Notes: generated from the letters alone by a model not told the origin. DNA of 63,977 nucleotides, filler included, from an uncultured bacterium (GCA_964637655.1; 4 parts of 4 records of this genome joined end to end with filler, not necessarily neighbours in it); one strand, 5' to 3'; positions 1 through 33,162 are shown, counted from the whole stretch's first letter. Program-made: numbers and translations.

Positions 1-399
1 CAGGTCGGCGGGAACGGTCGGTTCCGTCCGCAGGCAGCCGCTGGCGCCGGCCAGCAGCCGCGCGACGGCGCCGTGCACCGGCCCGACGACCACCGCGTCA
101 AACTCCGGCAGGTCGGCGAGCGACGGGTCGGCGAGCGCATGGTGTCCGCCGATGATGGTGCGCAGCGCGGGCCGCCGCTGCTTCAGCTCGCGGCAGATGG
201 CGCGGGCCGCGGGGATAAAGGCGGTCAGTGGCGACAGGCAGACGGCATCGGGCGCCCAGGCCAGTACCGCGCCGGCCACCTCCTCCCCCATCTCCGCGTC
301 GAAGAACCTGATGTCCTGCCCGCCGGCCAGCAGCGCTCCGCCGACGAAGAGCAGGCCGTAGCTCTCCTCGTTGCCGAACGCGACCAGGGCGAACTTCAT
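1..399 (-). CDS. Cobalamin-binding domain protein, probably B12-dependent radical SAM (N-terminal part; runs off window edge)
   Basis: Manual translation from ATG at 399: MKFALVAFGNEESYGLLFVGGALLAGGQDIRFFDAE...PDAVCLSPLT...RTIIGGHHALADP...FDAVVVG. This matches the B12-binding domain layout (GGxHA motif). The CxxxCxxC motif would lie outside the window. Confidence 0.65.
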   Translation of the reverse strand, partial: MKFALVAFGNEESYGLLFVGGALLAGGQDIRFFDAEMGEEVAGAVLAWAPDAVCLSPLTAFIPAARAICRELKQRRPALRTIIGGHHALADPSLADLPEFDAVVVGPVHGAVARLLAGASGCLRTEPTVPADL

Positions 400-409
400 G
401 CGCGCCCGC

Positions 410-1585
410 TCACCCCGCCGCGTCACCGTACGCGCGCACCGCCGCGATGATGCGGGCGACCTCGTCGTCGCCGAGCCACCAGCCGACCGGGATGGAGACC
501 TGCTCGGCATCGAACTCGTCGACCCCGGGGAGCGGGCGGCGGAACGCCCGGCACATCGTGTGGGTGTCGTTGCGGGCGTGCACCCGCGACGCGGTGATCC
601 CCGCCCGGTCCAGCGCCGCGATGAACGCGGCGCGGTCCCGTACCCGCAACGTGTGGAGCCAGTAGGAGCTGAGCCGGTCCGGCTGGTAGCGCAGCAGCGC
701 CACCCGGCGCAGGCCCTGCAGGGCGTCGCGGTAGCGGGCCGCGTGGCGGCGCGTGCGCTCGAGGTTCGCCCCGACGTACCGCAGCTGCTCCAGCCCGATA
801 GTCGCCGCAACGTCATGCATGTGGTACTTGTCGCCGTACTCGACGATGTCCGCCTCGCAGCGCAGGTCGGTGCGCGGCGCCCGCCGGTCGATGCCGTACC
901 AGCGCAGCCGCCGGCCGCGGACGCAGTCGGCGGCGGACCGGCAGGTCAGCGCGCCGCCGTCCACCGTCGTCAGCTCCTTGATCGCCTGGAAGGAAAAGCA
1001 GCAGAAATCGCCGTGCGCACCGACGGGCTGCCCGCGGTACTGCGCCCCGAACGCGTGGCAGGCATCCTCAATCAGCGCGAGCCCGTGCGCCGCCGCCAGG
1101 TGCCCGAGTTCCGCGAGGTCGCACGGGTAACCGCCCCAGTGCACGCACAGGATGGCGCGGGTGCGGGCGGTGATCTTCTTCGCGACGTCGGCCGGGTCGA
1201 GGTTGCCGGTCCACGGGTCGATGTCGCCCCAGACGATCGTCGCCCCCCGCGCCAGCACCGGCACGTTGGTCGCCGCACAGGTCATCGGGGTGGAAATGAC
1301 CTCATCCCCCTGCCCGACCCCCGCCAGCCGCAGGGCGAGATGGATGGCGGCGGTGCCGGTGTTGAGCGTCAGGACATGGGGCGTGCCGAACCACGGCTGC
1401 AACTGCCGTTCGAACTCCTCAACCTGCGGCCCCTCGCCGAGGTAGCCGCCCAGCAGCACCCGGCGCAGCGGTTCCATGACGCTTTCCGGCATGAAGACGC
1501 GGAAGAGCGGGATGTTTTTCCCCTCGCCGGAAACGAGCCGGCGTACCGGGTCGGCGACGTCGTGTGCGTCCTGTCGTTCAGTCAT
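410..1585 (-). CDS. DegT/DnrJ/EryC1/StrS PLP-dependent sugar aminotransferase
   Basis: Motifs NTGTAAIHLAL, LIEDACHAFGA and CFSFQAIKELTTVDGGAL (PLP Lys). Start placed at ATG 1585, downstream of a sigma70-like promoter. Confidence 0.92.
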   Translation of the reverse strand: MTERQDAHDVADPVRRLVSGEGKNIPLFRVFMPESVMEPLRRVLLGGYLGEGPQVEEFERQLQPWFGTPHVLTLNTGTAAIHLALRLAGVGQGDEVISTPMTCAATNVPVLARGATIVWGDIDPWTGNLDPADVAKKITARTRAILCVHWGGYPCDLAELGHLAAAHGLALIEDACHAFGAQYRGQPVGAHGDFCCFSFQAIKELTTVDGGALTCRSAADCVRGRRLRWYGIDRRAPRTDLRCEADIVEYGDKYHMHDVAATIGLEQLRYVGANLERTRRHAARYRDALQGLRRVALLRYQPDRLSSYWLHTLRVRDRAAFIAALDRAGITASRVHARNDTHTMCRAFRRPLPGVDEFDAEQVSIPVGWWLGDDEVARIIAAVRAYGDAAG

Positions 1586-1606
1586 GGCCTGTCGGGTTCC
1601 GGCGTC

Positions 1607-1635
1607 AGTGTAGCACCATCCGCCACGACAGGCAA
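1607..1635 (-). promoter_or_regulatory. sigma70-type promoter for the aminotransferase/radical SAM genes
   Basis: Minus strand TTGCCT-N17-TACACT with TG extension (TGcTACACT). Confidence 0.55.
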
Positions 1636-1642
1636 CCGCGCG

Positions 1643-1671
1643 TTGACGCCACCTGCCGCCGCGTGTATGCT
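1643..1671 (+). promoter_or_regulatory. sigma70-type promoter, divergent, for GT4
   Basis: TTGACG(1643-1648)-N17-TATGCT(1666-1671). Confidence 0.6.
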
Positions 1672-1731
1672 CTGCGCTATGGACCCGTCCGCGGCCACTG
1701 TCCACCCCGCGCCGGCCGGCAGCGGCCGGCG

Positions 1732-3081
1732 ATGACCCGCCTGCTGCTCCTCTCGCACGAGGCGTTCGGCAGCCGCCTCGCCGGCCCGGCGATACGTTTC
1801 GCCGGGCTCGCCGGCGCCCTGCAGCGTGCCGGGCATGACGTGACGCTGTGCGGCAGCGCGGTCGCTACCGGTTCGCCCGCCGGCGGCGTGCCGCCGCGCG
1901 TGCTGCCGCGGGGGGCTGCGCTCCGCGCCCTCATCCGCGCGCACGACCTCGTCATCACCAGCGGCACCACGCTGACCCCGGCGGTGCGGCGCGCCGCCGG
2001 CAGCCGCGGCATCGTGCACGACCTGCTCATCCCCGTCTACTACGAATCACTGCTGAACCATCCCGTGGCCGGCGACACCGCGGCCGACGCCGCCCGGCGC
2101 CGGCACCTCGCCGTGCACCACCGCGACAAGCGCCGGCACCTGCTGCGCCAGCTGCCGCTCGCCGACCACTACCTCTGCGGCAGCGAGCGGCAGCGCGACA
2201 TGCTGCTCGGCTGGCTCGCCGCCGCGGGTGCCGTCGCCCATGAGCGGGGCAACGAGCGGCTGCCGGTGGACCGCCTCGTCAGCATCGTGCCGCCCGGCCT
2301 GCCGCCGGAACCGCCCCCCGCCGCGGGTGACAGGCGCCTGTTCCCCGGCTGCACCGAATCGGACACCGTCCTGCTCTGGTGGGGCTGCGCCTACGACTGG
2401 TACGACCTCGGGACAGTGCTGGCGGCACTGGCACACCTCGCGCCGCGACGCCCGGACATCAAGCTGGTCCTCGGCGCGGCGCAGGTGCCCGGGCAGGCGG
2501 CGGTGACCGGACAGATGGCACGGCTTGCCGCCCGCCCGGAATTCCGTCACCTGTTCGGGCGGAGCGTGCAGCTGCTCAATGACTGGGTCCCCTACGCGGA
2601 GCGCGGGCGCTACCTTGCCGCCGCTGACGCGGGCATCTACGCCCACCCGGCGACGCTGGAGAGCCATTTCGCCGTGCGCACGCGCTTCTACGATTACTTG
2701 TGGGCGGGGCTGCCGGTCATTGTCACCGCCGGCGACGTGTGCGGCGACGCGGTGCGCGACCGGCAGCTGGGCATCACCGTGCCGCCGGGCGATGCGCCGG
2801 CCTGGGCACAGGCCATGGTGCGGCTGGCGGACGACCGCGCATTCCGTGCCGCCTGCCGTGCGCACGCCGCCGCCGCGCGGGGCGCGTATGCCTGGGAGGT
2901 CGCGGTGCAGCCGCTGCTTCGGCTCTGCGGCGATCCGCCGTCCGGCCGCCATCCGCAGCCTGCCGGCGCTGCCGCGTATGCCGGGCACCTGCTCGGCCGG
3001 GCCGCGGCCGCGTGGCGCACGGGCGGCGGCGGCACGCTGCTGCGCAAGACCGCGCGGCACCTGGGCAAGCTGCGCCCCTGA
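1732..3081 (+). CDS. Glycosyltransferase family 4 (GT-B)
   Basis: Motifs MTRLLLLSHE...LAGPAIRF, GSERQRD, WVPYAERGRYLAAADAGI and ESHFAVRTRFYDYLWAGLPVI. Confidence 0.85.
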   Translation: MTRLLLLSHEAFGSRLAGPAIRFAGLAGALQRAGHDVTLCGSAVATGSPAGGVPPRVLPRGAALRALIRAHDLVITSGTTLTPAVRRAAGSRGIVHDLLIPVYYESLLNHPVAGDTAADAARRRHLAVHHRDKRRHLLRQLPLADHYLCGSERQRDMLLGWLAAAGAVAHERGNERLPVDRLVSIVPPGLPPEPPPAAGDRRLFPGCTESDTVLLWWGCAYDWYDLGTVLAALAHLAPRRPDIKLVLGAAQVPGQAAVTGQMARLAARPEFRHLFGRSVQLLNDWVPYAERGRYLAAADAGIYAHPATLESHFAVRTRFYDYLWAGLPVIVTAGDVCGDAVRDRQLGITVPPGDAPAWAQAMVRLADDRAFRAACRAHAAAARGAYAWEVAVQPLLRLCGDPPSGRHPQPAGAAAYAGHLLGRAAAAWRTGGGGTLLRKTARHLGKLRP

Positions 3082-3092
3082 CAGCGACTGCG

Positions 3093-3821
3093 TCAGGCCG
3101 GCGGCGGCGGGCGGTAGCTGGCGATGGCGGTCGCCGGGTCGGCGCAGACCACCGGGCGGCCCCGGTCGAGGTGCATGATCCGTCCGCAGAGGCGCGCGAG
3201 CTGCGGCAGGTCGTGCGCGGCGGCGAGGATGGTGGTGCCGCGGCGCGCCAGCTCATCGACCCGGCGCACGCACTTCTCCTGGAAGGCGAAGTCACCGACC
3301 GCCATAACCTCGTCCATCAGCAGGATCTCGTGATCGAGGTGAGCGGCGATGGCAAATCCCAGCCGCAGCATCATCCCCGACGAGTAGTGCTTGAGCGGTT
3401 CGTCAATCCACGCCTGCAGTTCCGCGAACTCGATGATGGCGGGCGCCAGCCGCGCAATCTCGCGGTTACTGTAGCCGAAAAGCGAGGCGTTGAGGTGGAT
3501 ATTGCGCCGTCCCGACAGTTCCGCACAGAACCCGGCCCCGAGTTCGAGCAGCGTTGACAGGCGCCCGTGCACGGTCACGCTCCCGGCCGTCGGGTAGTAG
3601 ATACCGGCGATCAGCTTCAGCAGCGTGCTCTTCCCCGCCCCGTTGGCACCGATGAATCCGAGCACCTCGCCGCGCGCCGCGGTGAAACTGACATCCGCCA
3701 GCGCATCGTAGGAGGCCGGTGCCGGCGCGCGCGCCAGCAGGCGCTGCTTGAGCGAACAGTTCCGTTCCGGGCACAGCGGGAAGCGCTTCCCGAGCCCGCG
3801 GACCTCGACCGCGACAGTCAT
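3093..3821 (-). CDS. wzt: Polysaccharide ABC exporter ATP-binding subunit (Wzt/RfbB/TagH type, no C-terminal CBM)
   Basis: Walker A GANGAGKSTLL, ELGAGF, YSSGM signature, Walker B LLMDE. ATG 3821 overlaps the wzm stop. Confidence 0.92.
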   Translation of the reverse strand: MTVAVEVRGLGKRFPLCPERNCSLKQRLLARAPAPASYDALADVSFTAARGEVLGFIGANGAGKSTLLKLIAGIYYPTAGSVTVHGRLSTLLELGAGFCAELSGRRNIHLNASLFGYSNREIARLAPAIIEFAELQAWIDEPLKHYSSGMMLRLGFAIAAHLDHEILLMDEVMAVGDFAFQEKCVRRVDELARRGTTILAAAHDLPQLARLCGRIMHLDRGRPVVCADPATAIASYRPPPPA

Positions 3822-4600
3822 ATCGCCTCGGCGATGCGCCCCTGGTAGCGGCGGTAGAACAGCCGACCGGCCAGCAGCGCCAGCAGTGCAAACCCGGCGA
3901 GCAGCAGCAGCGTCTGCACGCCCGGCGCCTTGCCGTAGATGAGCACGCGACGGTAGGCGGTGAGCAGCGGCACCAGGGGGTTGAGGTAGTAGAGCGGCAG
4001 CAGGTTCGCCGGCACCATGTCGATGGGGTAGAAGACCGGGGTGGCATAGAAACCGATGGCGAGCAGCACGTTGACCAGGTAGCTGACGTCGCGGTAGAAC
4101 GCCCCGAGCAGCGCGAGGATCGTTCCCGCCCCCAGCAGCAGCAGGAACTGGCAGAGGATGAGCAGCGGCAGCCAGAGGTAGTGCCACGTCGGCGCGATGC
4201 CGTCGCACCAGAGCAGGGGGAACAGCACCAGCAGCGAACAGCCGAAGGTGATGGCATGCGACGACAGCGCGGCCAGCGGCACGATAACGCGCGGAAAACT
4301 GATCTTGAGAATCAGCGACGGGCTCTCGCGGAACGAGTTGGCCGCCCCGGACAGCGCCGCCTGGACAAACTGCCACGGCAGCAGCCCGGCGAGCAGGAAG
4401 AGCGGATAGTGCGCGATGTTCAGCGCAAACCGCCCGATGATGCCGAACACCACCACGAACACCAGCATCATCAGCAGCGGGTTGAGGAACGACCAGGCGA
4501 ACCCGAGCAGCGTGTTGCGATGATGCAGGTCCTGGTCCTTGCGCACCAGGTTGACAAGCAGGGAGCGGTAGCGCCACAGGCGCCGTAGTCCGGCCGGCAT
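3818..4600 (-). CDS. wzm: Polysaccharide ABC exporter permease (Wzm)
   Basis: LGFAWSFLNPL, LILKISFPR, YRDVSY, FYATPVFYP and LNPL motifs; about 6 TM segments. Confidence 0.92.
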   Translation of the reverse strand: MPAGLRRLWRYRSLLVNLVRKDQDLHHRNTLLGFAWSFLNPLLMMLVFVVVFGIIGRFALNIAHYPLFLLAGLLPWQFVQAALSGAANSFRESPSLILKISFPRVIVPLAALSSHAITFGCSLLVLFPLLWCDGIAPTWHYLWLPLLILCQFLLLLGAGTILALLGAFYRDVSYLVNVLLAIGFYATPVFYPIDMVPANLLPLYYLNPLVPLLTAYRRVLIYGKAPGVQTLLLLAGFALLALLAGRLFYRRYQGRIAEAI

Positions 4601-4606
4601 TCGCGA

Positions 4607-6007
4607 TCAGTGGATAAGCGTAACGACCGGGGAGCTGTACTGCGGCGGCGAGGACACTGCCGACGGGTAGGTGATGAACGGTTTCGGCAGCGCGCGCGGC
4701 ATTGGCTCGTCGTTGAGCGTGAAGCCGACGGGAATGTTGTTCAGGTGGATATCGCCCGTCGTATACAGACCACCGTTGATGGTGAACGGAAAATCGGCGT
4801 CCTTGACATTATTGGCATGAAACAGCCCGTTGCACAGCACCGCACCGTTGATGACCGCCGGTCCGCGCAGGTGATTCAGGTGCATTTTCCCGTTGACCAT
4901 GAACACGGTCTGGTAATTGCCCGGGCTGATGGTGGCGTTGAGCCCGTTGAAATGCAGGTCGCCATCCATATAAAAACACCAGTTGCCGGTGATGATCGGA
5001 TCGCCGGCGCTGCCGTCAACTGACAGGGACCCGCCCCTGATGTAGAGCGTCCCGCCGTTGGTGTACTGGCTTCCCCATGCCGCCGGCGGAAAGATGCCGC
5101 TCAGGGTATAGTCGCCATCCACCACCTTGACCGTGCCCTGATAGAGTTCAGGGCTCACCTCCGGATTGGCGGGAAACGACCACGAAATGTCCGGGCTGGG
5201 ATAAATACCGCCACCCGCCACATACACCCCGGTCGTATCCACCCCGCTCGCCGCGCTCACCGTGCCGTACACTGAAGCGCTGTCATTGTTGGTGAAATCG
5301 AGGTTGCTCGTGTTGGCATGCATGTCGCCGTTGATGATGATCTGGTTGCCCCCGCGCACATTGTTGATCTTGATGGAGCCCCCCGCGTACATCCCGTGAA
5401 CGAACAGCGGAATGGCGGTGGGATTCTTGATATCAATGGTCCCCACTGAATAAAACGAACGGTGCTCGATGACCGCGCGGGCGATGGCGCTCGCGGTCAG
5501 GTCCTCGTCGCGTGACATCGTCCCTGACGCCCACCTGGTGCCCAATTCAACTTCGACAAAGTACTCGATAATCTCCCTGTCCCCTTCCTGCCGGGCGACA
5601 AACTTGGGGCTGACGCGGTTGATCGTCAGGTAGCCGCCGAAGTAATCGGCCGCGGCGCTGTTGCCGGCATTGCGCTGCACATACTCGCGCGCGGCATTCG
5701 CGGCGTAAGCGTCAACGCTGCTGGCATCCATCTCCGAGAGCACGTGGTAACCGACCGCGTAATTCTGTTCCTGCATCCACGGGCGCAGTTCGCCGGTGCT
5801 CTGGATGTAGGAGGCGGCCGAGACGCTCGGCACGTAGCTCGCCGCGTGCAGGGCGGTGTCATCCGCCAGTTTCTGCAGCGCCTGCTCGAGGTTGCTCTTG
5901 CGCAGGGAATCCTGCACGAAGAAAAAGAGCATGACCAGCAGGATGATGAAAAAGGCGCTGAGAATCATGAAGTTGCCGCGTTCGCGGCGGCGGTTCAGGC
6001 AGCGCAT
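4607..6007 (-). CDS. TadG-like pseudopilin/adhesin (Tad N-terminal domain plus predicted beta-helix)
   Basis: Basic leader RRRERG|NFMI followed by a hydrophobic helix, then LQKLADDTALHAA (Tad LQxAADAAALA-like motif). Repeated GD-[IL]-H-[FL]-N-N strands. RBS GAGGAGG. Confidence 0.7.
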   Translation of the reverse strand: MRCLNRRRERGNFMILSAFFIILLVMLFFFVQDSLRKSNLEQALQKLADDTALHAASYVPSVSAASYIQSTGELRPWMQEQNYAVGYHVLSEMDASSVDAYAANAAREYVQRNAGNSAAADYFGGYLTINRVSPKFVARQEGDREIIEYFVEVELGTRWASGTMSRDEDLTASAIARAVIEHRSFYSVGTIDIKNPTAIPLFVHGMYAGGSIKINNVRGGNQIIINGDMHANTSNLDFTNNDSASVYGTVSAASGVDTTGVYVAGGGIYPSPDISWSFPANPEVSPELYQGTVKVVDGDYTLSGIFPPAAWGSQYTNGGTLYIRGGSLSVDGSAGDPIITGNWCFYMDGDLHFNGLNATISPGNYQTVFMVNGKMHLNHLRGPAVINGAVLCNGLFHANNVKDADFPFTINGGLYTTGDIHLNNIPVGFTLNDEPMPRALPKPFITYPSAVSSPPQYSSPVVTLIH

Positions 6008-6017
6008 GCCGTCCTCC

Positions 6018-7478
6018 TCAATGTACCAGCATCACCCGCGGCGAGCTGTACTCGGGCGGGCAGGTAAATTCAACGGGGTAGACGACCCACGGCTCGGGGA
6101 GCACGTTTGGGGTCGGCTTGTGGATGATGCTCAGATTCTGTTTCATGTTGTTGAAGTACACATCGTCGCCGGAATAGATGCCGCCGAGAATGGTCAGCGG
6201 AGCGTCAGGCGAAGCGTCGTTGTTGATGTGAATGCCGTTCGCCGCATAGATGCTGCCATTGAGCGTCATCGGGGCGGCCGCTTTGAGGTTGTTGAGATGG
6301 ATATCGCCGCCGACCATGAAGAAAATCTCCGCCGAGGTATCGGCGCTGCTGGCATTCACCCCGAAGTTGTTGAAGTGCACGTCCTCGGTCACCGAGAAGC
6401 ACCAGTCCCCCTGAATATTGGCATCGTCAGCAGCGTTTCCCGTGCCGTTGAGGTGCAGCGAGCCGCCGCGGCAGTAGAGCGTGCCGCCGGTGATGGTCTC
6501 GCCGCTCACCGTGTGAAACAGGTCGTAGTACGGGTCGTCCGGGTCGTTCGGGGGAAATACGCCGTTCATGGAAAAATCCCCGTCGACGATGATAATCGGC
6601 TGGGTGAAGTTCTCGTCGTTGACCCCGGTCGGGAAGATCATCGGGGGCATTTCCTGCTTCGGGCTGGAATCACCGGTGAGCACCAGCCCTGACACCGTCA
6701 TCGAGTCGGTATTCTTGATCTCGACTTTTGTCCCGCCGCTGACGTCGCCGTCGACGATGACGATATTGTCATTCTGGAAGGTGACCACCTGCTCATTGGC
6801 ATGCACGTCCCCCTCGATGTAGAGTGTTTTCGAACAGGCGGTGAAGGTGACATCAGTCTTGGCATAGACCCCGTTGGCAAAGACCGGGATGACTGTCGGG
6901 TTGTCGTAGTCGGGGTTGCTGATGGAATAGAATGACTGGTAGTCGACAATCGCCTTGGCGATGGCGGTGGCCGTCACGTCGCCGCTGCCGGCAAGCAGCG
7001 ACGATCCCCACTTCGTCGCCAGTTCCACCTCGACGTAGTACTCGATAACCTCCTTGCCGTCCGCCTCCCGCCGCGCCACGACCTTGGGGCTGGCGCGCAG
7101 GATGCGCAGGTCGCCGCCGAAGTAGCCGCTGGCCGCGCTGTTCCCCGCGTTGCGCTGCACAAACTCGGTCACTGCCTGCTGCGCGCATGCATCGACATGC
7201 TGCGCGTTCTGCAGCGAGAGGACGTACGACCCTTCACCGTACCCCTGGTCGGAATGCCACCCCCTGACCTCGCCCGCCTGCAGGTAGGAGACCGCCTTGA
7301 AGCTCGGCACCTGCGCGGCCGCGTAGAGCGCCGTGTCGTCCGCCAGTTTCTGCAGATCCTGCTCGAGGTTGCTCTTGCGCAGCGAATCCTGCACGAAGTA
7401 CAGGATCAGCCCGAGCAAGATGAGCGAGAAGGCCCCGATGATCATGAAATTGCCCCGCTGCCGTTTCCGCGTGGTCAT
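6018..7478 (-). CDS. TadG-like pseudopilin/adhesin, paralog of 4607-6007
   Basis: MTTRKRQRG|NFMI, VQDSLRKSNLEQDLQKLADDTALYAA and shared FVQRNAGNSAA..YFGG; C-terminus PPEYSSPRVMLVH. RBS GGAGG. Confidence 0.7.
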   Translation of the reverse strand: MTTRKRQRGNFMIIGAFSLILLGLILYFVQDSLRKSNLEQDLQKLADDTALYAAAQVPSFKAVSYLQAGEVRGWHSDQGYGEGSYVLSLQNAQHVDACAQQAVTEFVQRNAGNSAASGYFGGDLRILRASPKVVARREADGKEVIEYYVEVELATKWGSSLLAGSGDVTATAIAKAIVDYQSFYSISNPDYDNPTVIPVFANGVYAKTDVTFTACSKTLYIEGDVHANEQVVTFQNDNIVIVDGDVSGGTKVEIKNTDSMTVSGLVLTGDSSPKQEMPPMIFPTGVNDENFTQPIIIVDGDFSMNGVFPPNDPDDPYYDLFHTVSGETITGGTLYCRGGSLHLNGTGNAADDANIQGDWCFSVTEDVHFNNFGVNASSADTSAEIFFMVGGDIHLNNLKAAAPMTLNGSIYAANGIHINNDASPDAPLTILGGIYSGDDVYFNNMKQNLSIIHKPTPNVLPEPWVVYPVEFTCPPEYSSPRVMLVH

Positions 7479-7491
7479 GGCCGCACCTCCG

Positions 7492-8328
7492 TCACATCGG
7501 ATGCAAGCGCGAGGGATGCTTGCGCCACTCGATATCGAACTTGTCTTCCTGCCCGTCGTTATTGCGGTCGTACTTGGCGTACATCCACCATTCTCCGGCG
7601 ACGGTGGCGGAATCGACGTCATCGTTCCACCCGTCGCCGTCATCGTCCAGGCCGGTCATGTCGACCACCCCGTGATCAACGTGCGAGTAGGGCACCCAGG
7701 TGACGCTGGTGTTCAGCGCGTAGAGCGCATGGTCGTACAGGCCGCAGTAGTACTCCTGTTCATACGTGTCGACGAGACCGTCGCGGTCGAGGTCGTTGCG
7801 GGTGGTGATACGCGCCTCCTGGACGATGGGGACCGACAGCGTCTGCGCATGGCCGATGAAAGGGATGGAGAACCCGATGGTGTAATCGAGCGACAGGCGG
7901 ATATGGTAGCCCTCGGCGCGGTACATGTAGGCGGCATCCTCCGTGGCGCGCGGGGTGAAATACTCGTAGTCCCTGGGATAGGGGGCGACTATGGAATAGT
8001 CGACACATTCCCGGTTGTGCACCTCGATACCGTTGATGCGGATGCCGTGCTGCACGTAACCGGTAATCAGCAGTTCCTGCATCTTGCCGACCAGGACCTC
8101 GCGGATGATGTCGTCCTGCGCCCCGTTGGCTGCCGCCCACGTCGCCTGGTGCACCGCGTTGGTCAGCACGGAATTGTTGTAGTACATCACGGTCAGTTCG
8201 AAAATGGCCAGCACGAGGGCCACAAGGATGATGATCATGAAGGCCAGTTCAACCATCGCCTGCCCGCGCTGGGCTCGCCGGGCGCGGACCGGGCCGCGGT
8301 CAGTGGACGGACGGGTCGTGTGGCGCAT
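7492..8328 (-). CDS. TadE-like pseudopilin with Asp-rich DxDxDG repeats
   Basis: QRG|QAMVEL prepilin site with Glu+5, hydrophobic helix, LTNAVHQATWAAA; DLDRDG, DDDGDG and DRNNDG repeats. Start uncertain (ATG 8328). Confidence 0.75.
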   Translation of the reverse strand: MRHTTRPSTDRGPVRARRAQRGQAMVELAFMIIILVALVLAIFELTVMYYNNSVLTNAVHQATWAAANGAQDDIIREVLVGKMQELLITGYVQHGIRINGIEVHNRECVDYSIVAPYPRDYEYFTPRATEDAAYMYRAEGYHIRLSLDYTIGFSIPFIGHAQTLSVPIVQEARITTRNDLDRDGLVDTYEQEYYCGLYDHALYALNTSVTWVPYSHVDHGVVDMTGLDDDGDGWNDDVDSATVAGEWWMYAKYDRNNDGQEDKFDIEWRKHPSRLHPM

Positions 8329-9241
8329 AGTCGTACACGTCCTGCCAGCCGTCATTGTCGACGTCGTATTTGAGCGAGACGCGGATCTCCGCGTCGCAAT
8401 CGCTGTTCTGCGGCACCTGCTGCGGGAAGATCTGGTTGGGGAAGACAGCGGAGTTATACCAGAGCGGCACGTGGAACCTGTTGTCAGTAATCCGCCGCGT
8501 CGCCACCCACTGTGTGTCAGCCATATGCGGGGCGCCGCTCCAGGTGTAGGTCCAGAGCCAGACCTCGCCGGTGGCCGCGGTGCGCACAATGGCACCGGTA
8601 TCGTACGCGTCGAGGATGCCGTCACCATCATCATCCTGGTCGTAGACCCAGTCGGTATCGCCGTCGATGGCCCCGTCATTGTCGTGGTCGTCAGCCCACT
8701 GTCCCTCGTAGGTGTCATCGCGCCCGTCGCGGTCCTCGTCATTGCCGCGCACGATGTACATCTCGTGGATGAGCGGGGTGGTGGCGACGATCTCCCCGAA
8801 CAGGCCGAGCGAGATGCCGAAGGTGTAATCCATCGAGATGCGCGCCTTGTGCCCGTCGACGAATTCCCCCCAGGTGTTCTCCGTGTCGGGCACCGGGTTG
8901 CGCTGCCGCACCAGCGAGTACTGCACGTTGCGGATGGCGAACTGGAAGAGCGGCAGCGGCAGGAGCTTATTGCTCAGTTGCGACTGCAGCGTCACCTGCA
9001 CCGCCGTGTCGCCGTAGCCGACCTTGCGCATCCCCCCGCCCCAGTTGGTCACCTCGGGGATATCCCGCATCTGCCCGATGGCGAACTGGCGCGACGCCTC
9101 GTAGCCGGCGCGCTGCAGGATGTTGTAGTTGTAGCCCCAGAGGATGATGGAAAGGCAGGCGAAGATAAAGAAGAAAAACACCACGAACATCATCGCAAAC
9201 TCGACCATCGACTGCCCGCGCTGGCTGCGATATGCGTGCAT
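8300..9241 (-). CDS. TadE-like pseudopilin with Asp-rich DxDxDG repeats
   Basis: SQRG|QSMVEFA prepilin site, hydrophobic helix, LQRAGYEASR (TadE AAREGAR-like); DEDRDG, DHDNDG, DDDGDG and DVDNDG repeats. Strong RBS AGGAGGAGG. Confidence 0.8.
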   Translation of the reverse strand: MHAYRSQRGQSMVEFAMMFVVFFFFIFACLSIILWGYNYNILQRAGYEASRQFAIGQMRDIPEVTNWGGGMRKVGYGDTAVQVTLQSQLSNKLLPLPLFQFAIRNVQYSLVRQRNPVPDTENTWGEFVDGHKARISMDYTFGISLGLFGEIVATTPLIHEMYIVRGNDEDRDGRDDTYEGQWADDHDNDGAIDGDTDWVYDQDDDGDGILDAYDTGAIVRTAATGEVWLWTYTWSGAPHMADTQWVATRRITDNRFHVPLWYNSAVFPNQIFPQQVPQNSDCDAEIRVSLKYDVDNDGWQDVYDYAPHDPSVH

Positions 9242-9266
9242 GGCGCCTCCTCCTGCCTCTTTCAGT

Positions 9267-9282
9267 AGCAAGGCGTATGCCA
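9267..9282 (-). promoter_or_regulatory. sigma54 (RpoN) -24/-12 promoter for the pseudopilin operon
   Basis: Minus strand TGGCATACGCCTTGCT = GG-N10-GC, near the consensus TGGCAC-N5-TTGCW, 25 nt upstream of the ATG at 9241 and next to a GAFTGA activator gene. Confidence 0.75.
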
Positions 9283-9284
9283 GT

Positions 9285-9313
9285 ATGCTACACTATGGGT
9301 GGCCGGCAGGCAA
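9285..9313 (-). promoter_or_regulatory. sigma70-like promoter immediately upstream of the sigma54 box
   Basis: Minus strand TTGCCT-N17-TAGCAT; same -10 hexamer and spacing as other promoters in this window. Confidence 0.45.
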
Positions 9314-9362
9314 GTTGCGCGGGATGCCATTTTCGCACTATCGCCATGCCGGGTGGAGCGTT

Positions 9363-10669
9363 ATGCCAACTATTGCCTCGCGGTTCGATCTGTTCCTTCG
9401 GCGTTGCGGGCGGCATTTTCCTGCCACCGGCACCGGCGGGCACAGCGCCTGGCTGATGCAGATGCACCTGCTGGTACTCCTCGTGCTTACCGGCATCGTG
9501 GTCATTCTCCTTGCCGGGCAGGGACGCCACTACCCGCTCTACGCCTCGTCCCTGGTCGTCGCGCTCGCGCTCTTCTTCAATCTCGTCTGTTTCGCCCTGC
9601 TGCGCCGCTGCCCGCACTGGACCCGCGCCCTGCTGCACGCGATCATCGCCTGCGACATCGTCGTCATCACCGTCTTCGTCCACTTCACCGGCGGGCTTAT
9701 CTCGCTCTTCAGCATGGCCTACTTCATCATCATCATCGGCAGTTACATCTTCATTTCGCTCAATACAGGATTTGTCACCGCGCTGGGCGCCTTTGTTGCC
9801 TTCGCGGTTCTCGTCCTGCTCGAGTACTACGGGGTGGTCTCGAGCCATGCGCTGTACGATATCACCCGCCGCCTCCCCGACGACCATCTCTACGTCTATA
9901 CCACCGTCTACCTCAGCGGTCTGCTCTTCTATGCCGTCGCGCTCATCGGCGGGCAGGTGCAGCGCTACCTCGCCGCGACCCAAACCGCGCTGGCACAACT
10001 GGAAAAGATGCGCGCGCTCGGTCAGCTTGCGGCAGGGGTAGCCCACGAGGTCAACAACCCGCTGGGCAATATCAGCGCCTTCCTCGACAGCCGCGAAACC
10101 ACCGGCACCCCGCTCGCCACGGAGGATTTCGCGCTGCTGCGCGGCGAACTGCGGCGCGCGGGAGACACGCTCGGCAAGCTGCTGACCGGCGCCCGCCCGG
10201 CCGCCGCACCGGCGACGCCGGCGCCGGTCGCCGCGGTCATCACCGAGGCGGGCATCCTGCTCGACGCCTCCTGCCGCCGGGCCGGGGTGACGCTCTCCCT
10301 CGACCTGCCAACCGACCTGCCGGCCACCCCGGCGGGTGCCGCCGAACTCAAGGAATGCCTCGTCAACCTCGTGCTCAACGCCGTCGATGCGGTGCAGGCG
10401 TCGCCGGTACGCACGGTGACCGTCAGCGCCGCGCGACGGGGTGACCTGGTGCACCTCAGCGTGCATGATACCGGGCCAGGCATCGCCCCTGAGCACCTGC
10501 CGCACCTGTGCGAGCCCTTCTACACCACCAAGCCAGCCGGCAAGGGGACGGGGCTCGGCCTCTTTCGCGTCTACAGCGTGGTCACCGCTGCCGGCGGCCG
10601 CCTCGACATCGCCAGCGCTCCGGGACACGGCACCACCTTCACCCTCATCCTTCCCGCGGTGGCCGCCTG

Positions 10670-10670
<1 letters not shown>
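9363..10670 (+). CDS. Membrane sensor histidine kinase, PilS-like
   Basis: About 6 TM N-terminus with D..ITVFVHFTGGLISLFSMAY (resembles the PilS membrane domain); H-box AHEVNNPL; N box NLVLNAVDA; G boxes DTGPGI, FYTTK and GTGLGL. Confidence 0.85.
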
Positions 10671-12037
<1,367 letters not shown>

Positions 12038-12109
12038 CGTACACCAGCACGCTATGCAGCATTTTTACCACACTGCTTATCTCTGTATTGCAGACTTTTA
12101 TGTGTTTCC

Positions 12110-13969
12110 TTGAATTCTGTGGTTGAATTACCGCGCACTGACTCAACGGTGGTGCGTGGTGTCAGCACGCTGCTGTTCGTCCTGCTCTTTCTGCTCGCCT
12201 GTTTCACGTACCCGCGCCTCGCACTGGCTACCGGCGACCTGCTGCACCTGACCCCGCTGCTGCAGCGCACGCTGCTGCAGCTGGGGGGAGCGCTGGCCCT
12301 CAGCGGACTGCTGCTGGCGGGGTATGAATACGGGCGCTTTCGCGGCGGGGCGCGGGGTGCACCTGCCGGGGCGCGGCTGCTCGCGCTGCTGCTGCTGGTC
12401 GCGCTCTTAGCCCTCACCAACACCACGCTGAGCGCGGATGACTTGCGCAGTTTCGTGCTCCGCTGCGGCTTGTTCGTCTATGTCGCGCAGGCGCTGCTGC
12501 TGCGTCCCGCCACGCTCATCCCCCCGCGCCCGCTCGGGTGGGCACTGGCCGCGTATGCCGCGGCGCTGACCGTTGCCTGCACGGCTGCCGCGCATCTTCC
12601 CGTCGCGCTGCGCTGGACGCTCGACCAGGTCCTGCTGCTGCTCTTCTTTCTCGCACTGCGCGGCAGCGCACCCGACCCCGGGGCACTGCGCCGCTACCTG
12701 CGCGGTGTCCTGCTGCTCGGCCTGACCGTGGCCGCGCTGCACGGGCTGCTGCAGGCGGGCGGACACGACTGGTTCGCGTGGGAAGGCACACTCCCCGTCG
12801 CCGGCGCACAGCGCGTGGTCACGCAGGCAACCGGCATCTTCGGCAACCCGAACTTTTTCGGCATCCTGATGCTGGTCGCCATGCTGCTCGCGGGGGGCAC
12901 CGCCGCCGACCGCGCGCTGACGTCCCGCCTGCGCTTTACTGCCGCGCTCGCGGCCGTTCCCGCCGCCTGCGGCCTGCTTCTTTCCTATTCGCGCAGCGCC
13001 TGGGTTATCGCCGCCGCGACCGCGTGTATCGCCCTCTGGAGTGCGCGAAAGCAGCTGACGCCGCGCCGCCTGCTGCTTGCCGTCGCCGCGCTGCTGCTGC
13101 TGCTCGCCCCGGTGCTCTTCGCCCACCACGACCTGATTGCCCGGCGACTGCAGTCGCTCACCGGGGGCGGCCGCTCGCTGGCCGCGCGCCTGCTGCTCTA
13201 CGAGAGCGCGCTGCGCCTCACGCTGCAGCGCCCGCTGACCGGCTGGGGGCCCGACCATTTCCAGTTCGTCTTCGACCGTGCCATCGACCCGGCCTTCTTC
13301 CGTTTCTATCCGCCCTCGGTCAATTTCCTGCAGCATACGCATAACGAGTTCCTGCAGGTGCTCGCGGAAACGGGGGTGCCCGGACTGGCCGCCTGGCTGC
13401 TGCTGCTGGCCGCCGCGTTCCACGCCGCACGCGGCGGCGGCGCCTGCACCGCGGCCGCCAGTGCGCTCCTCGCCGCGGAACTTTTCAGTTTCAATTTCCG
13501 CTTTCTGCTCTTCCCCTTCCTCTGCTGGCTGCTGCTCGCGCTGGGTGCCGCCCGCCCCACCGCACCGCCGCCCCCCGCCGCCCCCCGGCTGCGCCGCCTG
13601 CTCCCGCTCCTGCTGTTCGTCGCCGCACTGCTCTGGTTCAGTCAGCCCTACTTTGCCAGCGGCTATGCGCGGCTCGGGGCGCTCTACCCGCGCGACGGGT
13701 TTGCCGGCTACTCCCTGCCGCGCGTCTTCTACCTGCACGCGCTCGCCTACGATGACGCCTGCCTGCGCGCGCATCTGGAACTGGCGGAACTCTACTGGTC
13801 AGCCGGCGAGTACGCTGACAGCCGGATCCACCTGCAGGAACTGCAGCGCTATTCCCGCACCTACGGCAACAGCGACCGCCGCCTGGCCGAGGTCTGCCGG
13901 CTGCTGGGCGATACCGCCGCCGCCGCACACCACCGCCAGCGCGCCGCTGTGCTGGAACCGTATCAGTAA
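12110..13969 (+). CDS. O-antigen ligase (Wzy_C/WaaL/O-OTase) family membrane protein with C-terminal TPR-like region
   Basis: GIFGNPNFFG, LSYSRSAW, PLTGWGPDHF and HTHNEFLQVLAETG motifs; many TM segments; helical TPR-like tail. Start uncertain. Confidence 0.8.
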   Translation: MNSVVELPRTDSTVVRGVSTLLFVLLFLLACFTYPRLALATGDLLHLTPLLQRTLLQLGGALALSGLLLAGYEYGRFRGGARGAPAGARLLALLLLVALLALTNTTLSADDLRSFVLRCGLFVYVAQALLLRPATLIPPRPLGWALAAYAAALTVACTAAAHLPVALRWTLDQVLLLLFFLALRGSAPDPGALRRYLRGVLLLGLTVAALHGLLQAGGHDWFAWEGTLPVAGAQRVVTQATGIFGNPNFFGILMLVAMLLAGGTAADRALTSRLRFTAALAAVPAACGLLLSYSRSAWVIAAATACIALWSARKQLTPRRLLLAVAALLLLLAPVLFAHHDLIARRLQSLTGGGRSLAARLLLYESALRLTLQRPLTGWGPDHFQFVFDRAIDPAFFRFYPPSVNFLQHTHNEFLQVLAETGVPGLAAWLLLLAAAFHAARGGGACTAAASALLAAELFSFNFRFLLFPFLCWLLLALGAARPTAPPPPAAPRLRRLLPLLLFVAALLWFSQPYFASGYARLGALYPRDGFAGYSLPRVFYLHALAYDDACLRAHLELAELYWSAGEYADSRIHLQELQRYSRTYGNSDRRLAEVCRLLGDTAAAAHHRQRAAVLEPYQ

Positions 13970-14015
13970 AATCAGGTTTCTTCTTTCCTCAGCTTCTACA
14001 GCAGGGAAAACTTGG

Positions 14016-14234
14016 CAGGTTGTTGAATACCTGCTCACGGAAAGTGTTTTCTGCCGGTCATGCCCGAGGTTGGTAATCGGGCATCCAGCAGTTTCCCGTC
14101 GCGCGTGCTGGATTCTTCCCCGCATTGTGCAATCGGGAATCCAGTATCAGCGACGGGAACGACTGGATTCCCGCTTTCGCGGGGATGACGGCAACGCCAA
14201 TCCCGGCGTGACAATGGTGTTTTTCAACATCCTG
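14016..14234. mobile_element. Putative MITE with imperfect terminal inverted repeats enclosing REP-like palindromes
   Basis: Left end CAGGTTGTTGAA (14016-14027) vs right end TTCAACATCCTG (14223-14234). Internal GTCATGCCCGA..TCGGGCATCCAG, CTGGATTC..GGGAATCCAG and CTGGATTCCCGCTTTCGCGGGGATGAC. Confidence 0.55.
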
Positions 14235-14834
14235 TTAGCGACGCCAGTTGCTGGCGGGGTTGATGAGCTTGGCCTGCAGGACGCTGATGCGCTGTTCCAG
14301 TTGCGCCAGTTTGCTGTCGAGCGCGGTCACGCGGCTGCGGAGCGCCGTCACCTGCGCCAGTTGCGCGGTGCTGCCGCCGGTACCGGCAACTGCCGCGAGC
14401 TGCTGCTGCAGGTTCTGCAGTTCGCCGCGCAGCGCGGCGAATTCCTGTGCCGCCGACGCGGCCGCCTGCCGCTGCGCTTCCAGCGTCGCCGCGCCCGCCT
14501 CGAGGTCGTTCACCTGCTGCAGTTTGCCGAGGTGGGCATCGAGCTGCTGTTCATACAGCGGCAGGCGGGCCACGAGAAAATCGTAATCGCGACCCCAGGC
14601 CGCGCGCTCCGCCGCGGCGGAATCGCTCTCCGGCGTTGCCGCCACTGGCGCCGGTTCAACCGGTACCGGTGCCGCAGCCACCGGGCGGGGCGTGTCAACG
14701 GGCGGGGGAAGATTGCGCACATCAGGGGGGCGCGGCGTCTCTGCCGGCGCGTCACCCAGCGTCGTCTCGCCGCCGCATCCGGCGCAGAACATCAAGCCGA
14801 GGGCGACCGTTGCCACCCGCATCCACCGGTTCAT
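14235..14834 (-). CDS. Hypothetical lipoprotein with Pro-rich linker and coiled coil
   Basis: Signal peptide with lipobox FCAG-C; heptad-rich C-terminus; leaderless promoter TTGCCC-N17-TATGAT 6 nt upstream of ATG. Confidence 0.7.
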   Translation of the reverse strand: MNRWMRVATVALGLMFCAGCGGETTLGDAPAETPRPPDVRNLPPPVDTPRPVAAAPVPVEPAPVAATPESDSAAAERAAWGRDYDFLVARLPLYEQQLDAHLGKLQQVNDLEAGAATLEAQRQAAASAAQEFAALRGELQNLQQQLAAVAGTGGSTAQLAQVTALRSRVTALDSKLAQLEQRISVLQAKLINPASNWRR

Positions 14835-14920
14835 GCGGGCATCATACCTTCGCGGCAGGCGCGGGGCAAGCAGCCGTCAGCTGTATTGCGCTGCTACCGG
14901 CGCCGTGCTACCATGCGCGC

Positions 14921-15733
14921 ATGGACCGCCTGCGCCCGCTGCTTACCGTCATCGAGGAGATCGCCCGCGGCGTCTACACCGACCGCATCCAGGCCTATAC
15001 CGGCGACGACCAGCCGGAGGAGTTGCGCCGCCTCGCCGAAGCCATCGGCATGATGATGGTGAAGATCGAGGCGCGCGAGGAACACAGCCGGCAGTTGATC
15101 GAGCAGCTGCAGCAGGCCAATTGTGCGCTGCAGTGCGCCACGCTCGACACCGTGGTCGCCATCGCCGGCGCGCTCAACGCACGCGACACCTACAGCGCGG
15201 GTCATGGCAGCCGCGTGGCGCAGTATGCCGAACGGCTGGCGCGGCGGCTCGGGCTGCCGCCGGCGGAAATCGAGGAGTTGCGGCTGGCCGGGCTGCTGCA
15301 CGACATCGGCAAGATCGGCTTTTCCGACCGGGTTTTCTCCAACGAGGACGCGACCATCAGCCCGTCGCTGCGCGAGGAGATCGCCCGGCATCCCGACATC
15401 GCCATGGACATCCTCGGGCATCTTTCCTGCCTCGGGCGCGTGCTCGAGTACATTCACCTGCACCATGAACGTCTCGACGGGAGCGGCTACCCGCACCGCA
15501 AGCGCGACACGGAAATCCCGCGCGGGGCGCGCATCATCGCCGTCGCCGACTGCTTCGACGCCATCACCACCTCGCGCCCTTATCAGCAGCGCCAGTCGCC
15601 GGCGCAGGCCTTCGCCATCCTGCGCCGCATCGCCGGCACGCACCTCGACGCCGACCTGGTCGAGCTGCTGATCGCCGACATCGGCGAGTTCGGCCTGGCC
15701 GACGCCGTGCTGCCCGCTTCCGCCCCCGCCTGA
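14921..15733 (+). CDS. HD-GYP domain c-di-GMP phosphodiesterase with HAMP-like N-terminal segment
   Basis: RDTYSAGHGSRVA, LLHDIGKIG, HHERLDGSGYP and IIAVADCFDAITTSRPY motifs; promoter TTGCGC-N17-TACCAT 6 nt upstream. Confidence 0.9.
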   Translation: MDRLRPLLTVIEEIARGVYTDRIQAYTGDDQPEELRRLAEAIGMMMVKIEAREEHSRQLIEQLQQANCALQCATLDTVVAIAGALNARDTYSAGHGSRVAQYAERLARRLGLPPAEIEELRLAGLLHDIGKIGFSDRVFSNEDATISPSLREEIARHPDIAMDILGHLSCLGRVLEYIHLHHERLDGSGYPHRKRDTEIPRGARIIAVADCFDAITTSRPYQQRQSPAQAFAILRRIAGTHLDADLVELLIADIGEFGLADAVLPASAPA

Positions 15734-15735
15734 TC

Positions 15736-17222
15736 ATGCTGACCGCGCCGCGCGCCGCCGCGCTGGTGGCTGTTGTCGCGCTGCTCGTGCGCCTGGGCTA
15801 CCTCTGGTCGCTGCCGGCACACCCGTTTTTCCACACGCCGCACTCGGACCACTTTCTCTATCTGCGCTGGGCCGGGCTGCTCGCCGCAGGCCGTCCCGTG
15901 CCCGCCGATGTAAGCATCCAGCAGCCCGCCTACGCGTATCTGCTCGCGCCCTTCGTCCGCTGCGCCCCCACCCCGGCCGCCGCCGCGCGCCTCGCCCACG
16001 TGCTCGAGCCCTTCGCCCACTGCGCTCCCACCACCCGGGCCACCGTCGCGCGCCGTGCGCACCTGCTCACCGGCTGCCTGAACGCGGCGCTGCTGACGCT
16101 GCTGGCGGCACGCGCACTGCCGCTGCGCGCCGCGCTCGCCGCGGGCCTGCTCTACGCTGCCGCACAGCCCGTTGTCTTTGCCGACCTGACCTGGAGCAAG
16201 GAACAGCTCGCCGTCACCTGCTGGCTCGCCGTTTTCCTGCTCTGGCCGGCGCGCGGCTGGCGCGTCATCGCGGTGCTCTGTCTCGCCGCACTCGCCGCCG
16301 GACTGCGCGAACTGTTCCTCGTGCCGGTGCTGCTTGCCGCCGCCGCGCTGCTCCCGCGACGTCAGATATTCGCCGCCGGCGCGCTCGCGCTCATGCTGCT
16401 GTGGGGCTGGAGCACGCTGCACACCGCCGTACGCGGCGGCGTGTCGCCGCAGGGCGTCGCGCAGCCGCTCTACGTCGGGGTCTGGCCGGGCGCCGGCATC
16501 ATCTATACTACGCCCCCGTTTGTCAGGCCGGGCCGCATCTATGAAGCGCATGACTGGCGTGCGGAAACGNNNNNNNNNNNNNNNNNNNNNNNNNNNNNNN
16601 NNNNNNNNNNNNNTTAATTAATTAANNNNNNNNNNNNNNNNNNNNNNNNNNNNNNNNNNNNNNNNNNNNGGAAACGGAACGCCGGCTGGGGTCGGGGGTG
16701 AGCGCCGCAACGGAAAACCGCTACTGGCTGCAGCAGGCACTCAACGAAGCCACGCGGGCGCCGGGGCACATCGCGCGTCTCGTCGCGCTGCGCGTCGCCG
16801 CGGGACTCTGGGGCGGCCCGCTGGAGGACAATTATCCCTACGCGCTCTACGCGCAGCGTTCGCTGCTGCGCTGGCTGGTGCCGCACTGGCTGCTCGTCAC
16901 GCTCGGGCTCGGGGGGCTGCTGCTCTGGTGGCGGGGAGGGGAAACGTCGCGCGCCCGCGCGCTCTGCACCGCCGTCGTGCTCGGCACACTGCTGGCCCCC
17001 GCCCCCTTCTACGTGCTCGAGCGGCTGCGCCTGCCGCTCTGGCCGGCACTGGCGGTGGCCGCGGTCGCCGGCCTCATGGCCGCGGTGCGCCTGCCGCGCC
17101 GCTGGCTGCTGCTCTACGCCCTCGCCGCGTTCATCACGCTCAACCCGTGGCTGACTGCGCGCCTCGCTCCCGTCGTGGCGGAGAGTATTTGTATCGGTTT
17201 GCAGGTTATCGCAGGGTACTGA
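15736..17222 (+). CDS. Membrane GT-C (ArnT/PMT-like) glycosyltransferase, split by assembly spacer
   Basis: Polytopic. PHSDHFLYLRWA...QQPAYAYLLA at the N-terminus; after the gap ENRYWLQQAL...DNYPY...PFYVLERLRLP. The two contig ends share GGAAACG in frame. Confidence 0.65.
16570..16669. other. Artificial scaffold spacer (N-run with TTAATTAATTAA six-frame stop)
   Basis: 100-nt N block containing a six-frame stop linker. Confidence 0.97.
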
Positions 17223-33062: not shown

Positions 33063-33162
33063 NNNNNNNNNNNNNNNNNNNNNNNNNNNNNNNNNNNNNN
33101 NNNNNNTTAATTAATTAANNNNNNNNNNNNNNNNNNNNNNNNNNNNNNNNNNNNNNNNNNNN
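33063..33162. other. Artificial scaffold spacer
   Basis: 100-nt N block with TTAATTAATTAA. Confidence 0.97.

Follow-up and report, generated by a model that had tools for sequence, protein, structure and literature searches.

The Tad-like Kil pilus of Myxococcus xanthus is served by stand-alone KilL/KilM/KilN 'Tip' clusters, whose existence and function have both been shown (PMC12075869, 2025). In Caulobacter crescentus, TadG/CpaL has a pilin-like domain, a middle adhesin domain that can be dispensed with and a terminal strand that is essential, and the apical subunit of type IV filaments is without glutamate at position +5 (PMC13533445). On the regulatory side, PilS of Pseudomonas aeruginosa senses pilin in the membrane through six transmembrane (TM) segments, and the PilS-PilR-sigma-54 pathway acts at pilA (PMC6058289). 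In Desulfovibrio vulgaris, too, a sigma-54 regulator binds before pilin genes of the Flp type (PMC3333781, 2011). The subject of the present analysis is an 11-kb locus (positions 3093 to 13969) in a stretch of 63,977 bases from an uncultured bacterium, here called the window, in which four genes for Tad-type minor pilins and minor-pilin-like proteins head an operon behind a sigma-54-type box. The locus is rather likely to be the minor-pilin operon, for priming or for the tip, of the organism's own Tad pilus, set apart from the pilus machine.

In layout, the locus is like the Kil Tip clusters, which are TadE/TadF/TadG-like sets away from the machine whose proteins have prepilin leaders, the third also bearing a large distal domain; Kil has several interchangeable tips, and the two TadG-like genes of the locus may likewise be alternatives (PMC12075869). 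Unlike the Kil clusters, to which there is no detectable sequence relation, the locus holds the sole TadE set of its genome, has two TadG-like genes for one TadE pair, and combines a predicted beta-solenoid head with an operon that includes wzm-wzt and is preceded by a sigma-54 box. With Caulobacter TadG/CpaL and CpaJ/CpaK, it shares a minor-pilin-like N-domain, a middle tip domain, a conserved C-terminal beta-strand and an apical subunit without Glu at +5 (PMC13533445); unlike in Caulobacter, the middle domain is a DUF7305 or ice-binding-like solenoid and the family is tiny. The neighbouring regulators are likened by their domains to PilS-PilR/pilA, with a six-TM kinase that has no periplasmic domain, a GAFTGA NtrC-type activator and a -24/-12 promoter before a pilin-class gene (PMC6058289), although no PAS domain was found in the kinase and the genes controlled would be those of Tad minor pilins instead of a type IVa major pilin. 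D. vulgaris DVU2114 similarly places Tad-class pilus genes under a sigma-54 two-component regulator, but its target, in the published account, is a major pilin heading a tad locus with cpa/tad-like genes after it, whereas the operon here is a detached minor-pilin operon (PMC3333781).

The original prediction had presented this combination of genes as one not described before. Since stand-alone tips (PMC12075869) and sigma-54 control of Flp/Tad pilin genes (PMC3333781) are already in print, and since the linkage to the glycan genes is missing in relatives, the locus is a new example of known arrangements and no new conserved system.

The minor-pilin cassette and the Tad machinery

The window joins four contigs of a metagenome-assembled genome (C45, C46, C47 and C68) via N runs, with paired 44-N runs at 16570-16669, 33063-33162 and 49427-49526 as the joins. 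Features are not readable across these three joins, and the context of the locus is that of contig C45 only (window 1-16569, 16.6 kb). The host genome (G000) has a completeness of 90.6% and is spread over 485 contigs that total 3.99 Mb. Its lineage is very isolated: one of the 100 nearest genomes (G001) belongs to the same family, and the other 99 are related at domain level only. The features of the locus are as follows, in window coordinates.

9267..9282, minus strand: sigma-54-type -24/-12 box TGGCATacgccTTGCT, 25 nt upstream of the tadE1 ATG, with AGGAGG in between
8300..9241, minus strand: tadE1, TadE-type minor pilin, 313 amino acids (PF07811, 36.5 bits)
7492..8328, minus strand: tadE2, second TadE-type minor pilin, 278 amino acids (PF07811, 36.8 bits)
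6018..7478, minus strand: tadG1, TadG/CpaL-like, apical minor-pilin-like protein, 486 amino acids (PF13400, 20.5 bits, below cut-off; AF2 model; Foldseek)
4607..6007, minus strand: tadG2, tadG1 paralogue, 466 amino acids (PF13400 at the border)
3818..4600, minus strand: wzm, ABC-2 permease (PF01061, 59.7 bits)
3093..3821, minus strand: wzt, TagH/Wzt-type ABC ATPase (PF00005, 69.2 bits)
9363..10670, plus strand: sensor histidine kinase with PilS-like 6-TM part, HisKA and HATPase_c (PF25323, 6TM_PilS, 30.1 bits)
10670..12037, plus strand: NtrC-family sigma-54 activator with REC, AAA+ with GAFTGA, and HTH_8 (Pfam domains; GAFTGA read in the translation)
12110..13969, plus strand: Wzy_C-family membrane protein, ligase- or O-oligosaccharyltransferase (O-OTase)-like (PF04932, 89.5 bits)

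The six minus-strand genes lie in the order tadE1-tadE2-tadG1-tadG2-wzm-wzt, and the kinase, activator and Wzy_C genes are divergent on the plus strand. The prediction that four Tad-type genes run into wzm, with a 6-bp gap, and on into wzt was exact in both order and spacing. Along the operon, tadE1 and tadE2 overlap by 29 nt, the next gaps measure 13 bp, 10 bp and 6 bp (the last between tadG2 and wzm, 4601-4606), and wzm and wzt overlap by 4 bp, the wzt ATG overlapping the wzm stop (ATGA). No gap in the operon contains a terminator-like site. A scan of 2900-12200 for consensus promoters and terminators stayed at chance level, with 4 found against 1.6 expected and 7 against 4.7, respectively. 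On the plus strand, the activator ATG overlaps the kinase stop by 1 nt and the Wzy_C gene follows 72 nt after the activator gene. Single-run contigs from two DNA sequencing runs, short and shallow as they are, span the tadG2-wzm junction, which is therefore no assembly artefact. The GC content is lower at window 4000-10000, yet the GC content of third codon positions (GC3) stays at 0.81-0.91 there. Because GC3 is unchanged, horizontal transfer was rejected as the cause; the dip reflects amino-acid composition, with no sign of foreign DNA.

The TadE identity of the first two genes passed the profile check that had been proposed for it, both proteins scoring well above the curated PF07811 cut-off of 22.9 bits, and the same matches were recovered in a genome-wide search. 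Each has a predicted prepilin-peptidase site of the form G/XXXXE (the slash marking the cleavage point), with the leader MHAYRSQRG/QSMVEF in TadE1 and ...RRAQRG/QAMVEL in TadE2, and each has Glu at +5. The Flp leaders of the genome read RG/QGMVEY, against RG/QSMVEF and RG/QAMVEL, a likeness that would fit processing of Flp, TadE1 and TadE2 by the same peptidase. Their G001 orthologues are 69% (TadE1) and 58% (TadE2) identical. The C-terminal halves of both proteins are Asp-rich, with DxDxDG-like repeats that are kept in G001 and may bind calcium; Pfam TSP3 gave no match in either protein at E <= 0.01. In the host genome, complete to the extent given above, no TadE gene beyond tadE1 and tadE2 was found, and for this reason the cassette is probably the only priming set of the pilus and not an accessory one.

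The two TadG-like proteins are further from their reference family, PF13400 (Tad, cut-off 22.3 bits). TadG2 reached 17.4 bits in the window scan and 22.0 bits (22.5 with neighbouring matches) in the genome search. A member of their own family, P0005, passes at 34.3 bits, the only PF13400 matches above noise in the host genome are on this contig, and the profile of the family reaches distant proteins built of PF13400, Tad_C and DUF7305 or an ice-binding-like beta-solenoid. The leader of TadG1 reads ...RQRG/NFMII, and both proteins keep the Gly (RG/NFMI) and have no Glu at +5. The AlphaFold2 (AF2) model of TadG1 (pLDDT 76.3) consists of a helix at 2-55, an alpha/beta part at 89-181, a solenoid at ~200-452 and a strand at 481-485; near the C-terminus, residues P474, P475, S479, P480, V482, L484 and H486 are invariant in 7 sequences. 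As modelled, the anatomy of TadG1 matches that published for TadG/CpaL, together with the Glu+5 rule. The TadG-like label draws on the modelled fold of TadG1 and on family relatives, the scores with the PF13400 profile itself being borderline for TadG2 and below the cut-off for TadG1.

A Foldseek search with the TadG1 model returned ComZ of Thermus thermophilus first (PDB 6qvi, E 1.1e-5), followed by ice-binding solenoids. ComZ, a tip-associated minor pilin of the competence pilus, is likewise a pilin scaffold with a large beta-solenoid, but the match has a TM score of 0.27 at 12% identity, ComZ is of a type IVa system, and no DNA-binding role is implied for TadG1. TadG1 and TadG2 are 44-47% identical, with the difference greatest in the solenoid region, and the G001 cassette, which has one tadG (62% identity), is missing tadG2. 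For these two reasons, TadG1 and TadG2 may be heads that replace one another on a single TadE base. The prediction of a complex of TadE1(10-180), TadE2(23-180) and TadG1(10-486) scored 0.24, where the mark is 0.32, and so weighs neither for nor against such a complex. The TadG family is very small, with 5 members in a word-indexed search of 5.8 billion proteins and 5 representative clusters at E <= 1e-30 in an exhaustive profile search of 1.84 billion representatives. Searched against genome contigs, the TadG alignment found no related locus, and against metagenome contigs it found one contig, 99.94% identical to the G001 locus.

Genome searches for T2SSE, T2SSF, Flp, A24 and secretin confirmed that contig C45 carries no flp, tadA/B/C, tadV or secretin gene. 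The core genes are located elsewhere in the same genome, as is rpoN, on contig C457. A 68-amino-acid Flp pilin, a short A24 peptidase of the TadV type and a TPR protein are encoded together on C14; on C113, a tadA ATPase gene is followed by two single-domain T2SSF genes (tadB, tadC) and then DUF192. Further Flp-type genes occur on C445, C273 and C115, and searches of the 4-Mb genome gave four matches to secretin and 10 to T2SSE ATPase. The genome thus encodes, on other contigs, a Tad pilus for the cassette proteins. This part of the original prediction is supported: the minor-pilin module stands alone, is probably regulated and belongs to a Tad pilus whose genes lie elsewhere, and the cassette holds the only TadE genes of the genome. 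Two other observations concern the pilin genes. The Flp-type genes of C273 and C115 encode two paralogous proteins of ~180-190 amino acids with a Flp-like start (RG/QGMVEYGLIIG) and long C-terminal extensions, which are long Flp-type pilins. Directly upstream of flp-tadV on C14, at 2551-6879, a 1442-amino-acid surface protein with fn3, Big_9, CarboxypepD_reg and dockerin-like domains is encoded.

The promoter box, kinase and activator

The box before tadE1 has the form TGGCAT-N5-TTGCT and is the sole match in the window at <=1 mismatch. By arithmetic from the window rate, ~0.002-0.004 chance boxes would be expected in the one-strand target of 121-215 nt between tadE1 and the kinase gene. Elsewhere in the host genome, prepilin-type genes are immediately preceded by three further boxes (TGGCA[TG]-N5-TTGC[TA]), two of which adjoin their own sigma-54 activators (C277, C154). 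The weight of the box comes from its position and from these three similar boxes, and not from the motif. A canonical GG-N10-GC box had been reported here in the original prediction; it is present and well placed, and its motif considered alone does not exceed chance.

The divergent PilS-like kinase with six TM segments and the GAFTGA activator were found as described. The kinase matches 6TM_PilS (PF25323) at 30.1 bits, and at 33 bits in a second search, against a cut-off of 27; its start is at 9363 (the database call, giving 435 amino acids) or at 9456, and its sensor domain has 3 homologues only in the search of 5.8 billion proteins. The activator reaches none of the NCBIfam equivalog cut-offs. 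Other kinase-activator pairs of the genome sit nearer to type IVa genes (C113, C27). The flp gene on C14 is preceded by a sigma-70-like promoter, TTGACA-17-TATAAA. Given the placement of the box, the similar boxes before prepilin genes and the sigma-70-like flp promoter, we infer that the kinase-activator pair would drive the cassette and thereby gate pilus initiation.

A binding site for the activator was also sought. Within 9242-9400, GGCAT occurs 4x; since some 5-mer occurs >=4x in 14.7% of Markov-1 simulations, this candidate was rejected. The inverted repeats upstream of tadE1 are weak, and no activator site is claimed.

The surroundings of the other boxes can be described briefly. On C277 (218-5033), the box TGGCATcacgaTTGCA comes after the genes of a HAMP kinase and a sigma-54 activator, with at least 4 N_methyl pseudopilin genes in a row behind it. 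On C154 (4128-7170), the box TGGCATtcacgTTGCT and a sigma-54 activator gene face in opposite directions; behind this box, a 230-amino-acid protein with a Flp-like leader (RG/VSASEY) and DUF4114 is encoded, and then a TPR-like protein. YfhO and GT2 genes flank this pair, and the upstream DNA is very AT-rich. On C166 (6481-8790), the box TGGCAGatcgtTTGCT stands before two T2SSG/N_methyl pilin genes, directly followed by a Wzy_C-domain gene that is truncated where the contig stops. One gene behind another box of the genome has a PspA-like look, judged by eye only.

Conservation and the glycan genes

In G001, tadE1-tadE2-tadG are kept in the same order as a stand-alone cassette between M29 and M23 peptidase genes, a layout in keeping with the Myxococcus Tip clusters (PMC12075869). 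No wzm/wzt, kinase, activator or Wzy_C gene lies beside the G001 cassette, and the surroundings of the cassette differ completely between the two genera. The upstream region in G001 is AT-rich with TATAAT and has no sigma-54 box. G001 has no full-length orthologue of the kinase, only weak matches to the Wzy_C protein, and two wzm homologues (36-37% identity) on other contigs; by these comparisons, the wzm/wzt, kinase, activator and Wzy_C genes of the locus are without clear counterparts there. The orthologues of the genes flanking the G001 cassette are on separate short contigs in the host genome, where synteny is not informative. Synteny in relatives had been put forward as a check, and what is conserved is the pilin gene order, not the wzm/wzt linkage. 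G001 also has a second, divergent TadE-TadE pair (contig C235, 8-2330), one member with a bacterial TSP3 repeat, followed by a TPR-like gene; this stand-alone pair adjoins an ArsP-type permease gene.

TadE matches occur in 28 of 101 genomes, a count that includes the host. From all 27 other genomes, 38 stretches around TadE matches were searched by tblastn with ten host proteins, leaving out the G001 cassette (G001:C32, examined separately) as well as the weak matches G045:C3 and G017:C3:417327. TadA/B/C homologues are found in 15 of the 38 stretches and in none of the remaining 23, 7 of which are <12 kb; stand-alone TadE cassettes are common. No stretch (0/38) has a wzm match, in a search that is insensitive for ABC-2 permeases, yet in which a Wzt-type ATPase would show; the ABC-ATPase matches, in 2 of 38, are weak (50-54 bits, against 193-201 bits for true paralogues). 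The one Wzy_C match (1/38) is weak and in a core-linked locus. A sigma-54 activator is present in 1/38 (L071), near a lone TadG-like gene; RpiR, BMC and aldehyde-dehydrogenase genes surround the activator gene, and with such unrelated neighbours it was not taken for a link. The proposed new system, in which the pilin cassette would be tied to glycan export and to an O-OTase, is not borne out by these comparisons, the linkage being missing in G001 and in the 38 TadE loci.

Within the locus itself, the products of wzm and wzt are best described, by their families, as a coupled putative glycan-exporter pair of an ABC-2 permease and a TagH/Wzt-type ATPase. Wzm scores far below the cut-offs of the NCBIfam Wzm/KpsM models; for Wzt, the best NCBIfam models are TagH and Wzt, both below equivalog cut-offs, and the protein is without a C-terminal carbohydrate-binding domain. 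The pair is one of three such pairs in the genome, and the Wzy_C gene is one of 11 Wzy_C matches.

The Wzy_C domain is common to WaaL ligases, Wzy polymerases and O-OTases and does not discriminate among them; O-OTase-specific Pfam domains exist. In the Wzy_C protein of the locus, Wzy_C was the only Pfam domain at E <= 0.01, and none specific to O-OTases was found at that threshold. Its comparison with solved structures gave no significant match, and its TPR-like tail is weakly supported (NCBIfam BcsC region, E 9.5e-4, 17 bits; PDB, E 0.56-0.94). Of the ligase/TPR gene that had been predicted, the Wzy_C part therefore stands at 89.5 bits and the TPR tail is weak. The label of putative O-OTase is not supported by more than the Wzy_C domain, which has 11 matches in the genome. 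The PglL/TfpO proteins are Wzy_C-family pilin O-oligosaccharyltransferases encoded near pilin genes, with tfpO (pilO) directly after pilA. This layout resembles C166 of the host genome, but not the locus, in which the Wzy_C gene is not directly after a pilin gene and lies behind the activator gene on the strand opposite to the pilin genes. The Wzy_C proteins of C45 and C166 are barely alike (E 0.018).

Neighbouring genes on contig C45 extend this setting on both sides:

1-816 frame, minus strand: B12-binding-domain gene running off the contig
410-1705, minus strand: DegT-type aminotransferase
~1732-3081, plus strand: GT1-type glycosyltransferase, converging on wzt with an 11-bp spacer
~14900-15733: HD-GYP gene, on the right flank together with genes for a coiled-coil lipoprotein and an unassigned membrane protein

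Judged by their domains, the left-flank genes (410..3081) would form a sugar-modification context.

Explanations of the locus and their meaning

On the reading that the locus is a minor-pilin operon set apart from the Tad machine, TadE1 and TadE2 would be cut by the TadV-type peptidase encoded beside flp and would form the base of an initiation complex. TadG1, or alternatively TadG2, would cap this complex and display its beta-solenoid head as a tip adhesin. The operon would be read from the sigma-54 promoter, activated by the divergent PilS-like kinase and NtrC-type activator. With a sigma-70-like promoter at flp, the two-component system would gate pilus initiation and leave the supply of subunits untouched, and with wzm-wzt on the same transcript, export of one of three ABC-exported glycans would be co-induced with the tip proteins.

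Several results weigh against this reading. The bare motif of the box is not above chance, with 1 match against 2.56 expected in the window and 89 matches genome-wide at <=1 mismatch, without enrichment. G001 keeps its cassette without box, kinase or activator, and for that reason the wiring of these three to the cassette seems recent and is unproven. An alternative target of the kinase and activator could be the Wzy_C gene that follows them at 72 nt. A sigma-70-like site inside tadG2 (5019-4992, 9/12 matches) could drive wzm-wzt alone, and in the sequencing runs searched for the stretch 3093-9300, no RNA run contains it. Both TadG-like proteins score at the PF13400 cut-off or under it, and the AF2 model of TadE1, made from a 2-row alignment (pLDDT 42.9), was unreliable and not used.

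If the box arose by chance, the locus could be explained as a Tad cassette that landed in a polysaccharide locus, with the kinase and activator controlling something else. The motif statistics just given lend the box no support on their own, and G001 is without all the linked parts in wholly different surroundings. Such an accident would nevertheless have had to place the box 25 nt before an ATG with a Shine-Dalgarno sequence and next to an activator gene, where only some thousandths of a box are expected, in a genome with three more boxes before prepilin genes; the 6-bp gap between tadG2 and wzm is moreover too small for a terminator or promoter. We consider this explanation very improbable. 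Joint expression, which the operon structure favours, is also the starting point of an explanation without pilin glycosylation, in which the two-component system would turn on pilus initiation together with the export and ligation of a surface glycan, O-antigen-like or adhesive, as one attachment programme. The Wzy_C gene directly after the activator gene and the nearby HD-GYP gene (for a c-di-GMP phosphodiesterase) would fit, and surface sensing in Caulobacter ties Tad pili functionally to adhesive polysaccharide (PMC12607857). The linkage, however, is conserved neither in G001 nor in the 38 TadE loci, which leaves this explanation quite unlikely.

An ABC-transporter glycan pathway needs a ligase and no polymerase. 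Were the 11-kb block one system, the Wzy_C protein could act as an O-oligosaccharyltransferase that puts the Wzm/Wzt-exported glycan on the Tad minor pilins or on Flp. By the 6-bp gap and the 4-bp overlap, wzm-wzt are part of the pilin operon, the cassette has sugar genes to its one side and the Wzy_C gene to its other, and the wzm/wzt of the locus is a third pair in the host where G001 has only its two distant homologues. On C166, a sigma-54 box and two pilin genes are likewise followed by a Wzy_C gene, and on C154 a Flp-like gene is beside YfhO and GT2. Against this stand the absence of the linkage from G001 and from the 38 TadE loci of 27 other genomes, the frequency of Wzy_C matches in the genome, by which a Wzy_C neighbour is not rare, the lack of any O-OTase-specific domain at the threshold given, and the faint resemblance of the C45 and C166 Wzy_C proteins. 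A glycosylated pilus of this kind is unlikely. The pilin-pilin-Wzy_C row of C166, the layout of C154 and the fusion of wzm-wzt to the operon keep it and the co-induction of pilus and glycan alive at low odds. A wider version would give each type IV filament gene set of the lineage its own sigma-54 activator and glycan-transfer enzyme (C45, C166, C154). The C45 kinase would then sense the Tad (pseudo)pilin pool, gate initiation and turn on a dedicated ABC-exported glycan for the tip via Wzy_C, yielding a glycosylated, feedback-controlled Tad tip; this, too, seems rather improbable. At present, the glycan link is a juxtaposition in one genome.

The separate minor-pilin operon thus remains the reading we favour, and its interest lies in where control would be exerted. 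If the promoter and kinase work as inferred, Tad piliation would be controlled at the priming step via the minor pilins, with the major pilin made from an ordinary promoter, and control at that step would have a bearing on what sets the number of pili. The glycan link would gain wider interest only once Tad tip proteins proved to be glycosylated. With two TadG-like paralogues downstream of a single TadE pair, the locus would offer a compact example of tips that can be exchanged, and TadG1 and TadG2 would represent a family of beta-solenoid tip proteins to which public data add almost no relatives.

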